Part shown: positions 20,623 to 20,928 of the stretch, piece after piece
How positions within the stretch are numbered: the stretch's first letter is position 1
Layout: each line of letters opens with the position of its first letter
Origin: a virus
Lineage: Duplodnaviria > Heunggongvirae > Uroviricota > Caudoviricetes
Length of the DNA stretch: 64,000 nt
Strand: one strand, 5' to 3'
Virus record (IMG/VR): IMGVR_UViG_3300021431_002946
Location: 225,291 to 289,290 of that record
Notes under the pieces: generated by a model
What the model saw: only the letters and a program-made list of their open reading frames with translations
The model's database searches: none
What the model was told of the DNA's origin: nothing
Position numbers and translations under genes: made by a program

Positions 20623-20928
20623 GTTTTTCAATGTCGGATATTATCTTCGACATTCTCAGAGGATAGTTTCCATATAGATGGAAGTTTTTCTTTGCCGGAG
20701 TTTCATATTTTAACTCAGCAAAATGTTTCCTTTTTTAGGAAGTTTTTCTATCCCTATAATAAGTCGGATAGTGTCAATCACTGATTCTCATAGTATGGGA
20801 GTTTTTCTATGGGATTTTAAAAGTTGTATCGGCTCGTCTCATTTTCTCCTGGTAAGGAGGTTTTTCTGAGTATCTGAATGGTCTAATTCATCAGGTTCAG
20901 AGTTCTCCAAGTAATTGGAGGTTTACAT
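20623..20928 (+). CRISPR. mini CRISPR array, I-E type, with five non-identical repeats and four 33-nt spacers, plus a 5' orphan handle and a 35-nt spacer-like segment
   Basis: Repeats at 20666-20691, 20725-20749, 20783-20808, 20842-20867, 20901-20928; each is a hairpin followed by GTTTTTCT (last GTTTACAT); period 58-59 nt. Confidence 0.85.

Follow-up and report, generated by a model that had tools for sequence, protein, structure and literature searches.

The stretch of DNA analysed here is a window of 64,000 nucleotides (nt), positions 225291–289290 in the 467,383-bp genome of a rumen phage (IMG/VR record IMGVR_UViG_3300021431_002946) that has direct terminal repeats and a guanine-plus-cytosine (GC) content of 25–30%. 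It carries a divergent type I-E-like CRISPR-Cas locus (short palindromic repeats, clustered and regularly interspaced, with their associated genes), in the order cse1-cse2-cas7-cas5-cas6e, array, cas2-cas3 (Table 1). An earlier note on this DNA had described the array as a mini-array of unlike repeats in which a hairpin and an 8-nt handle are kept; its sequences and coordinates were confirmed. That array and the sequences its guides match are the subject of this text.

Among the type I-E signature genes, four of five have Pfam scores above the cut-off, Cse2 being the exception, and every NCBIfam equivalog scores below its cut-off, which is why the system is called divergent. Among relatives, Cas6e shows no variation at His29 or in its C-terminal glycine-rich loop, and the HD motif, Walker A (GxGKT), DEVH box and QRxGR motif of Cas3 are intact when aligned to solved Cas3 structures. 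The fusion of Cas2 to the N-terminus of Cas3 is atypical for type I-E. No match to Cas1 was found in the complete 467-kb genome, whereas the identical search recovered Cas1 in 9 of 14 control genomes. A 266-amino-acid (aa) open reading frame (ORF) 3′ of cas2-cas3 was considered as a degenerate Cas1 and rejected, as it has no Pfam or PHROG match and no similarity to the Cas1 of a relative. With a genome above 200 kb, effector genes, a compact array and no Cas1, the locus has the features of the huge-phage type of CRISPR-Cas system. The Cas2e-like domain (20981–21280, the N-terminus of a 903-aa protein) is retained despite the absence of cas1.

Table 1 Features of the cas locus and its array, in window coordinates
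Feature	Position	Strand	Remarks
Promoter-like site 5′ of cse1	16113–16141	+	TTGAAT-17-TATTAT; consensus scan, pattern match only
Partial S3 protospacer on cse1 promoter	16152–16168	+	AAC + 11 contiguous nt, positions 13–14 also matched
cse1/cas8e	16216–17763	+	PF09481, 83 bits
cse2/cas11e (divergent)	17738–18244	+	PF09485, 22.8 bits, just below cut-off of 24.6
cas7e	18265–19494	+	PF09344, 146 bits
cas5e	19507–20052	+	PF09704, 75 bits
cas6e	20033–20617	+	PF08798, 68 bits; stop codon 20615–20617
Orphan 8-nt handle	20623–20630	+	GTTTTTCA; without upstream hairpin
Guide S0	20631–20663	+	33 nt behind orphan handle
Repeat R1	20666–20691	+	Hairpin TTCCAT/ATGGAA and handle
Guide S1	20692–20724	+	33-nt spacer
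Repeat R2	20725–20749	+	Hairpin TTCCT/AGGAA and handle
Guide S2	20750–20782	+	33-nt spacer
Repeat R3	20783–20808	+	Hairpin TCTCAT/ATGGGA (one G-U pair) and handle
Guide S3	20809–20841	+	33-nt spacer
Repeat R4	20842–20867	+	Hairpin CTCCT/AGGAG and handle
Guide S4	20868–20900	+	33-nt spacer
Terminal repeat R5	20901–20928	+	Hairpin CTCCAA/TTGGAG kept; handle replaced by GGTTTACA
Promoter-like site for cas2-cas3	20922–20950	+	TTTACA-17-TATAAT; 11/12 consensus matches
cas2-cas3 fusion	20981–23692	+	Cas2e-like N-terminus, HD nuclease, superfamily 2 (SF2) helicase

The four spacers S1–S4 (20692–20900) are exactly 33 nt long, as the earlier note had it, and the array indeed starts 5 nt past the cas6e stop codon, a gap without a leader. 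What lies behind the orphan handle behaves as a fifth spacer, S0. The period of 58–59 nt and the unique spacers of constant length beside cas genes are as in canonical CRISPR arrays, whereas the (near-)identical repeats, the leader and the growth at one end by Cas1-Cas2 are lacking. Pairwise identity among R1–R5 is 57–81% with no identical pair; the longest exact run common to two repeats is 12 nt, and when R1–R4 are anchored at the right, the columns with at least 75% agreement form a run of 12 nt only. The array was not among the repeats that Tandem Repeats Finder gave at its lowest threshold, and Rfam gave no match there.

The type I-E repeat format is nevertheless kept, with a stem of 5–6 bp, then an 8-nt handle (G-UUUUUCU) and 33-nt spacers. 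R1–R4 all end in GTTTTTCT with an invariant handle, and the altered handle of R5 overlaps the promoter-like site of cas2-cas3; the last repeat requires the hairpin alone. Predicted hairpins of 5–6 bp abut the handle in each repeat, and all five recur in the predicted fold of the whole region; hairpins anchored in this way were found in 7.25% of random 19-mers from this genome. Chains of hairpin plus handle at a spacing of 56–63 nt occur seven times on the plus strand, never on the minus strand and never in five shuffled genomes; two chains from the scan, at genome position 143,461 and at 24,918 in the window, seem to be false positives. The sequence GGARGTTTTTCT, with at most one mismatch, occurs five times in the window where 0.83 occurrences are expected.

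Within the window, stem pairs 1, 2, 5 and 6 are altered on both sides, so that the compensatory stem changes claimed earlier can be upheld. In a set of 20 different repeats, drawn from this phage and related ones, C-G, T-A and G-C occur at pair 1 and A-T, T-A, G-C and C-G at pair 5. The two arms of one repeat pair over a mean of 5.6 bp, as compared to 2.9 bp after arms are swapped between repeats (pairs were counted by script, since MAFFT put the 5′ arms out of register owing to unequal loop lengths). This covariation, together with the kept handle, supports the earlier proposal of selection for processing.

Host genes matched by the guides

Targets were searched in 143 genomes of one bacterial family, using patterns with N at each third position and at most three mismatches, and the results are conditioned on at most three non-wobble mismatches. 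Reversed patterns, patterns with the Ns shifted by one position and spacers from other arrays served as controls. The search for S4 with N at every third position was chosen because the differences between orthologous S1 and S4 spacers of related phages looked codon-periodic. It gave matches in 43 metagenome contigs and, among all GTDB species, in 47 species genomes, in a single gene throughout: codons 8–18 of the NADP-glutamate dehydrogenase gene gdhA on the sense strand (EN/EYLNGLMQKVM). The genomes are those of rumen and gut Clostridia titled Saccharofermentans, Ruminococcaceae bacterium (including the isolates AB4001 and YAD3003) or Clostridiales bacterium.

The other guides were compared with the 143 genomes. 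S1 matches 90 of them (1 with the control) on the antisense strand of the glycogen phosphorylase gene glgP (PF00343), at the C-terminal motif KCWVNICNSGKF; a five-genome search for S1 as a sense-strand peptide had failed. S2 matches rnfC on the sense strand (DN/IPMMSRIVSIT) in 46 genomes as against 3 for the control, with zero mismatches at all 22 non-wobble positions in several of them. For S3 the target is polC, again on the sense strand (SN/MGLYNLYRLVS), with 49 genomes as against 6 for the control and 3 when the Ns were shifted by one. S0 matches 13 genomes (control, 1), with an AAT flank, in a gene for a small TrbC/VirB2-like membrane protein, of which a genome of the host group can have as many as three copies; several genomes agree with S0 throughout its first 19 nt, and the Pfam assignment to TrbC is weak (E = 5e-4). 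The array of three related phages (L004–L006, see below) starts with a different guide, which matches a ParA Walker-A motif in 126 of the 143 genomes and in none with the control. Seven spacers from other arrays gave 0–1 matches in five genomes that are all matched by S1, S2 and S3. The identities of glgP, rnfC, polC, gdhA and the TrbC-like gene were taken from Pfam. From these matches, rumen Clostridia of the Saccharofermentans group would be the likely host.

The protospacer flanks were outside every search pattern. Still, 49 of 50 distinct protospacers have AAC or AAT at the 5′ side, which suggests a protospacer adjacent motif (PAM) AAY. In the sense-strand targets this flank is an in-frame Asn codon, and in glgP it is the wobble base of a Lys codon that lies opposite the Y; the wobble positions therefore fall at guide positions 3, 6, 9 and so on, including positions 6, 12, 18, 24 and 30. 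Type I-E Cascade leaves each sixth position of the guide unpaired, which is established for E. coli and T. fusca and is assumed here. All five guides of the array share the phase that puts the PAM Y and every sixth position on a wobble base, as do six of seven cas-adjacent guides tested; with random phases the probability of at least six of seven is about 0.007. Guides and host differ at 10% of the non-wobble positions, at 57% of the 6n+3 positions and at 72% of the 6n positions, and the in-frame stop codons within S1 and S3 take their third base from 6n positions.

Mismatches to the host at wobble positions could come from divergence on the host side alone; differences among phages cannot. 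In spacers that are orthologous between phages, 12 of the 44 wobble sites are variable; for non-wobble sites the count is 7 of 88 (Fisher p = 0.007, with few and non-independent relatives). The S4 of one relative has GAC where the hosts are polymorphic for GGT and GAT. Given a neutral divergence of about 30%, the wobble-biased substitution of spacers implies purifying selection at host-invariant positions. Some differences between orthologous spacers are of the CAG/TAG kind and raised the possibility of TAG recoding; the ORF coverage of the genome gives no such sign, and the host targets account for the pattern without recoding.

The guides could also be directed mainly at competing mobile elements that bear copies of the target genes, and less at the host chromosome. 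The TrbC-like target of S0 looks mobile and the first guide of L004–L006 is aimed at a ParA motif; in addition, a spacer from the ordinary array of another relative matches the cas3 of the window clade at 24–25 of 27 positions. However, each of glgP, rnfC, polC and gdhA is a single housekeeping gene of the chromosome and lies on large contigs, some of which come from cultured isolates. Protospacers were found neither in cultured phages nor, by literal and codon-aware scans, in IMG/VR, and the phage's own genome has no full spacer targets but only chance matches of up to 16 nt. We consider this explanation very improbable.

Related phages and the absence of cas1

Homologues of Cas6e with 98% to 35% identity were found, many of them on contigs of 100–530 kb; a Cas6e search of IMG/VR gave no close relatives. 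The phages that share the array, L002–L006 (Cas6e 98–84% identical), form the window clade; their arrays are degenerate and have no cas1 nearby. In a more distant relative, L151 (54%), cas6e and cas2-cas3 are joined by cas1, a leader and no fewer than 22 identical repeats. L010 and L011 (63%) also have a leader and identical repeats, with spacers that differ past the first, and no cas1 within the stretch examined. The loci compared form a series. In L147 (72%), a mini-array of three unlike repeats lies between cas6e and cas2-cas3 and a second, normal array led by a leader follows cas1, while L150 (60%, 425 kb) has about eight unlike hairpin repeats and no cas1 nearby. Cas1 is thus missing genome-wide from the present phage, the relatives that carry cas1 have homogeneous repeats, and two lineages without cas1 nearby have degenerate ones. 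This supports the frozen array that the earlier note had proposed, with the divergence of the repeats attributed to the loss of Cas1. As to Cas2, L010 and L150 have a Cas3 without the Cas2 domain, whereas in others cas1 follows cas2-cas3.

S1 and S4 are present, with point changes, in every member of the window clade; S2 and S3 are present in the 96–98% relatives, and S3 is absent from L004–L006. In L003 there is one additional unit, whose spacer has no host matches in 3n phase, and L004–L006 have a small ORF inserted after cas6e. Divergence at four-fold sites of cas6e and cas2-cas3 is 0–1% for L002, 8–9% for L003 and 26–34% for L004 and L006. Since guides are retained over a divergence of 26–34% at four-fold sites, the array must be old and vertically inherited. 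The comparison of spacers across related phages, suggested earlier as a check, showed turnover through the loss or gain of whole internal units and none by addition at a leader end. S1 and S4 persist where Cas6e is 84% identical and four-fold sites differ by 26–34%, so the idea of a fixed guide set stands.

Could the array simply be decaying after the loss of Cas1, neither processed nor used? Degenerate repeats and the missing leader would be expected in that case, and the array differs from that of a 98% relative by about 2.6% where the four-fold sites of cas2-cas3 differ by 1%, although the numbers are small. Decay does not explain, however, why stems change in a compensatory way, why the handle is invariant in R1–R4, why spacers are exactly 33 nt, and why substitutions track the codon phase in a locus with all six cas genes intact. 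We therefore give this possibility hardly any credence.

Some further observations were made on the relatives. A small ORF (73–124 aa, no family match) lies between cas6e and the array or cas2-cas3 in several of them (L004, 1685–1906; L006, 937–1161; L007, 5590–5838; L149, 4593–4967), whereas this interval is 5 nt in the window. A guide of the degenerate L150 array (8059–8150) matches a conserved coding motif, YTDRETPWTRI, in 17 of the 143 host-family genomes as compared to 1 for the control, all of the matches sitting at the limit of three mismatches. The relative with the cas3-matching spacer mentioned above is L010; this spacer, number 10 of its ordinary array, agrees with cas3 of the window (22725–22751) at 24 of 27 positions and with that of L003 (8748–8774) at 25 of 27, and has no match to the cas3 of L010 itself. 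Related huge phages may thus target one another's CRISPR nuclease gene.

The cse1 promoter and the genomic surroundings

Apart from its match to polC, S3 has a partial protospacer on the cse1 promoter. The seed match consists of AAC and 11 nt (16152–16165), lies 14 nt 3′ of a promoter-like −10 hexamer and 48 nt 5′ of the cse1 ATG, and is conserved in L003. Its run of 12 paired positions is the longest PAM-adjacent one in the genome, the maximum across 20 shuffled genomes being 11. Regulatory mini-arrays are marked by degenerate repeats that flank a conserved spacer, and by a seed match of at least 10 bp next to a PAM at a cas8 promoter; on these sequence features S3 is probably autoregulatory for cse1. 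No seed match was found for the L150 array upstream of the L150 cse1.

It can be envisaged that the array is mainly such an autoregulatory mini-array, in which S3 represses cse1 and the other spacers are functionless relics of the acquisition of host DNA. The PAM-flanked site on the cse1 promoter, the degenerate repeats that are typical of regulatory mini-arrays and the derived mismatches off the host consensus in the window lineage would all fit. On the other hand, non-wobble positions of S1 and S4 have changed by about 8% across lineages where neutral sites have changed by about 30%, L004–L006 keep S1 and S4 but lost S3, and every unit has what appears to be an intact hairpin and handle. An array that serves autoregulation in the main is therefore improbable in our view.

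The promoter-like site for cas2-cas3, 31 nt upstream of this gene, is the top-scoring one of the region scanned, and its hexamers and spacing are identical in L003 and L004 (read by eye). On the other side of the operon, a 219-aa ORF with internal tandem repeats of 27–30 nt (15465–16124) lies between a strong terminator (15358–15389) and cse1; it is conserved in L003, and its sole match is a weak one to an Rz-like spanin. Downstream of the cas locus (25193–26320) there are a homing-endonuclease-like ORF (phrog_314) and an FtsK/SpoIIIE-like ORF. No transposase was found among the neighbouring ORFs scanned. Between 12 and 26 kb, all 19 listed ORFs of at least 100 aa are on the plus strand, and the GC skew is positive across the window. 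A cluster of 53 transfer RNA (tRNA) genes occupies the plus strand at 52800–63800; one of the calls (52934–53004) has an abnormal two-base anticodon. The phage has no homologue of the polymerase III alpha subunit with which the polC protospacer could be compared.

Elsewhere in the genome there are at least six further plus-strand mini-arrays of the hairpin-plus-handle style, with one to four spacers of 32–33 nt and repeats that are mostly unlike (genome coordinates approximately 18265–18350, 20280–20470, 22070–22150, 35850–36100, 37300–37560 and 433010–433110). Near 20.4 kb, one spacer is orthologous to one of the L147 mini-array, and the two are the same except at positions 3, 15 and 21. For these other mini-arrays, no targets were found in five host genomes (3n phase) or in IMG/VR, and there were no PAM-flanked self-targets.

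Proposed function and its alternatives

The array is probably a cassette of guides fixed in the germline, part of a divergent type I-E-like Cascade/Cas2-3 system that is carried by the phage and has lost Cas1. We infer transcription, processing, PAM use, cleavage and host identity from the sequence. The cassette would be co-transcribed with the Cascade operon, and Cas6e would cut at the base of each private hairpin, which would yield CRISPR RNAs of about 59 nt composed of the 8-nt handle, the 33-nt guide and the hairpin. Cascade would then read the 5′ AAY PAM and pair with the motifs in host glgP, rnfC, polC, gdhA and the TrbC-like gene, upon which Cas2-3 would be recruited and the host chromosome degraded from these entry points. 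At the same time, S3 could keep the expression of Cascade low through its 11-nt site at the cse1 promoter without causing self-cleavage. Without Cas1 the repeats would no longer be homogenised and would drift, with only hairpin and handle retained, and the guides would evolve by point mutation under selection at host-invariant positions.

Several observations weigh against this proposal. Each of the guides differs from all sampled host alleles at four or more paired positions, and these alleles include one of gdhA from the metagenome that also yielded a 98% relative (L023); such a mismatch load may prevent recruitment of Cas3. The host was assigned by guide matches alone, and the GC content of the phage is 25–30% as compared to 44% for the host loci. 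S0 has no hairpin 5′ of its handle that could serve 5′ processing. In a sequence comparison, the match fraction is 0.29 at 6n positions and 0.47 at 6n+3 positions, which is a weak difference (p = 0.039). Finally, the window lineage has three derived changes to A or T off the host consensus (S1 position 15, S2 position 9, S3 position 16), which could mean relaxed selection.

The pairing may be too imperfect for cleavage, in which case Cascade would remain bound as a roadblock. The wobble mismatches would then block the recruitment of Cas2-3, and the guides would act in the manner of CRISPR interference (CRISPRi) on polC, gdhA, rnfC and glgP, just as S3 is supposed to do at the cse1 promoter. 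In view of the four or more paired mismatches to all sampled alleles, this is a serious rival. Regulatory cr-like RNAs are known to work through partial complementarity (PMC10120712), repression was suggested for some host-targeting phage systems by Al-Shayeb et al. (PMC7162821), and the S4 site lies near the start of gdhA. However, the HD and helicase motifs of the retained Cas2-3 are intact and its gene has a promoter-like site of its own, the four target genes form no obvious regulon, and S1 is antisense and matches near the 3′ end of the glycogen phosphorylase gene. What the targets have in common is extreme sequence conservation, which fits entry sites better than regulation. Binding without cutting thus seems to us an unlikely function, and degradation driven by Cas3 is favoured because Cas2-3 is intact with its own promoter-like site and the targets share conservation rather than function.

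A broader interpretation, which we put forward tentatively, is that an adaptive CRISPR system has turned into an innate one that is hard to escape: a small inherited guide set with private repeats, aimed at wobble-phased motifs of core genes, tuned by point mutation and controlled by feedback at a cas promoter. Synonymous changes of the host at the PAM or at the unpaired guide positions would then give it no escape. Unlike repeats may even be favoured, as they would resist the recombinational loss of guides that cannot be replaced. The private repeats of such an innate system may in this way protect the array.

The system shares features with several known ones. The CRISPR-Cas systems of huge phages likewise occur in genomes above 200 kb, lack Cas1 and have compact arrays with some spacers that match chromosomes (Al-Shayeb et al. 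2020, PMC7162821). That study relied on MinCED or CRISPRDetect, which look for similar repeats, and accepted targets at up to one mismatch, whereas the present array has repeats that are all different and guides that are inherited across diverged phages, share one codon phase and have wobble mismatches. Filters of that type would have missed both the array and its targets. Regulatory mini-arrays and cr-like RNAs also have degenerate repeats, a conserved spacer and a seed match at a cas8 promoter (Shmakov et al. 2023, PMC10120712). In them a single spacer is aimed at a target within the cas locus; the present array has five guides, four of which, S3 (polC) included, have full-length, phase-locked homology to host housekeeping genes. 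CreTA/CreR also belong with the regulatory mini-arrays.

The type I-F system of Vibrio phage ICP1 is also phage-encoded, has a Cas2-3 fusion and is aimed at DNA resident in the host. It is said to have kept Cas1, identical repeats and spacer acquisition, and to target a defence island instead of core genes. The homing guides of CRISPR-associated transposons resemble the present ones in being fixed, with a divergent repeat, a conserved chromosomal site and tolerance of partial complementarity. These transposons are without Cas3 and carry Tns/TniQ genes, whereas the present locus has an intact Cas2-3. Virus-borne mini-arrays that use host Cas proteins are very short as well, but their repeats are identical to those of the host and their spacers are directed against related viruses; here the phage has its own effector and private repeats. 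A 2026 survey of jumbo phages used MinCED arrays and allowed at most one mismatch, as in PMC7162821. Neither this survey nor a 2024 review describes inherited degenerate arrays or codon-phased guides against host core genes, and no published description of this combination was found in the literature searched, the coverage of which was incomplete.

Huge phages with CRISPR systems that lack Cas1 and have occasional host spacers were known already, as were degenerate regulatory mini-arrays. What is new is that the guides match conserved host core genes, which suggests that CRISPR can serve a phage as a hard-wired weapon or switch against its host. Such arrays and their targets would escape surveys that require the repeats to be similar and the spacer matches to be nearly perfect. 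If the proposal is correct, it provides a host prediction for an uncultured 467-kb rumen phage, with two cultured strains that carry the targets, and the codon-phase rule could aid the design of guides that tolerate synonymous variation in their targets. It would also show how arrays evolve after the loss of Cas1, with repeats that drift to what Cas6e and Cascade need and guides that evolve like genes under purifying selection. The system would then be a natural case of germline-encoded CRISPR recognition of conserved host sequence, as opposed to acquired memory.

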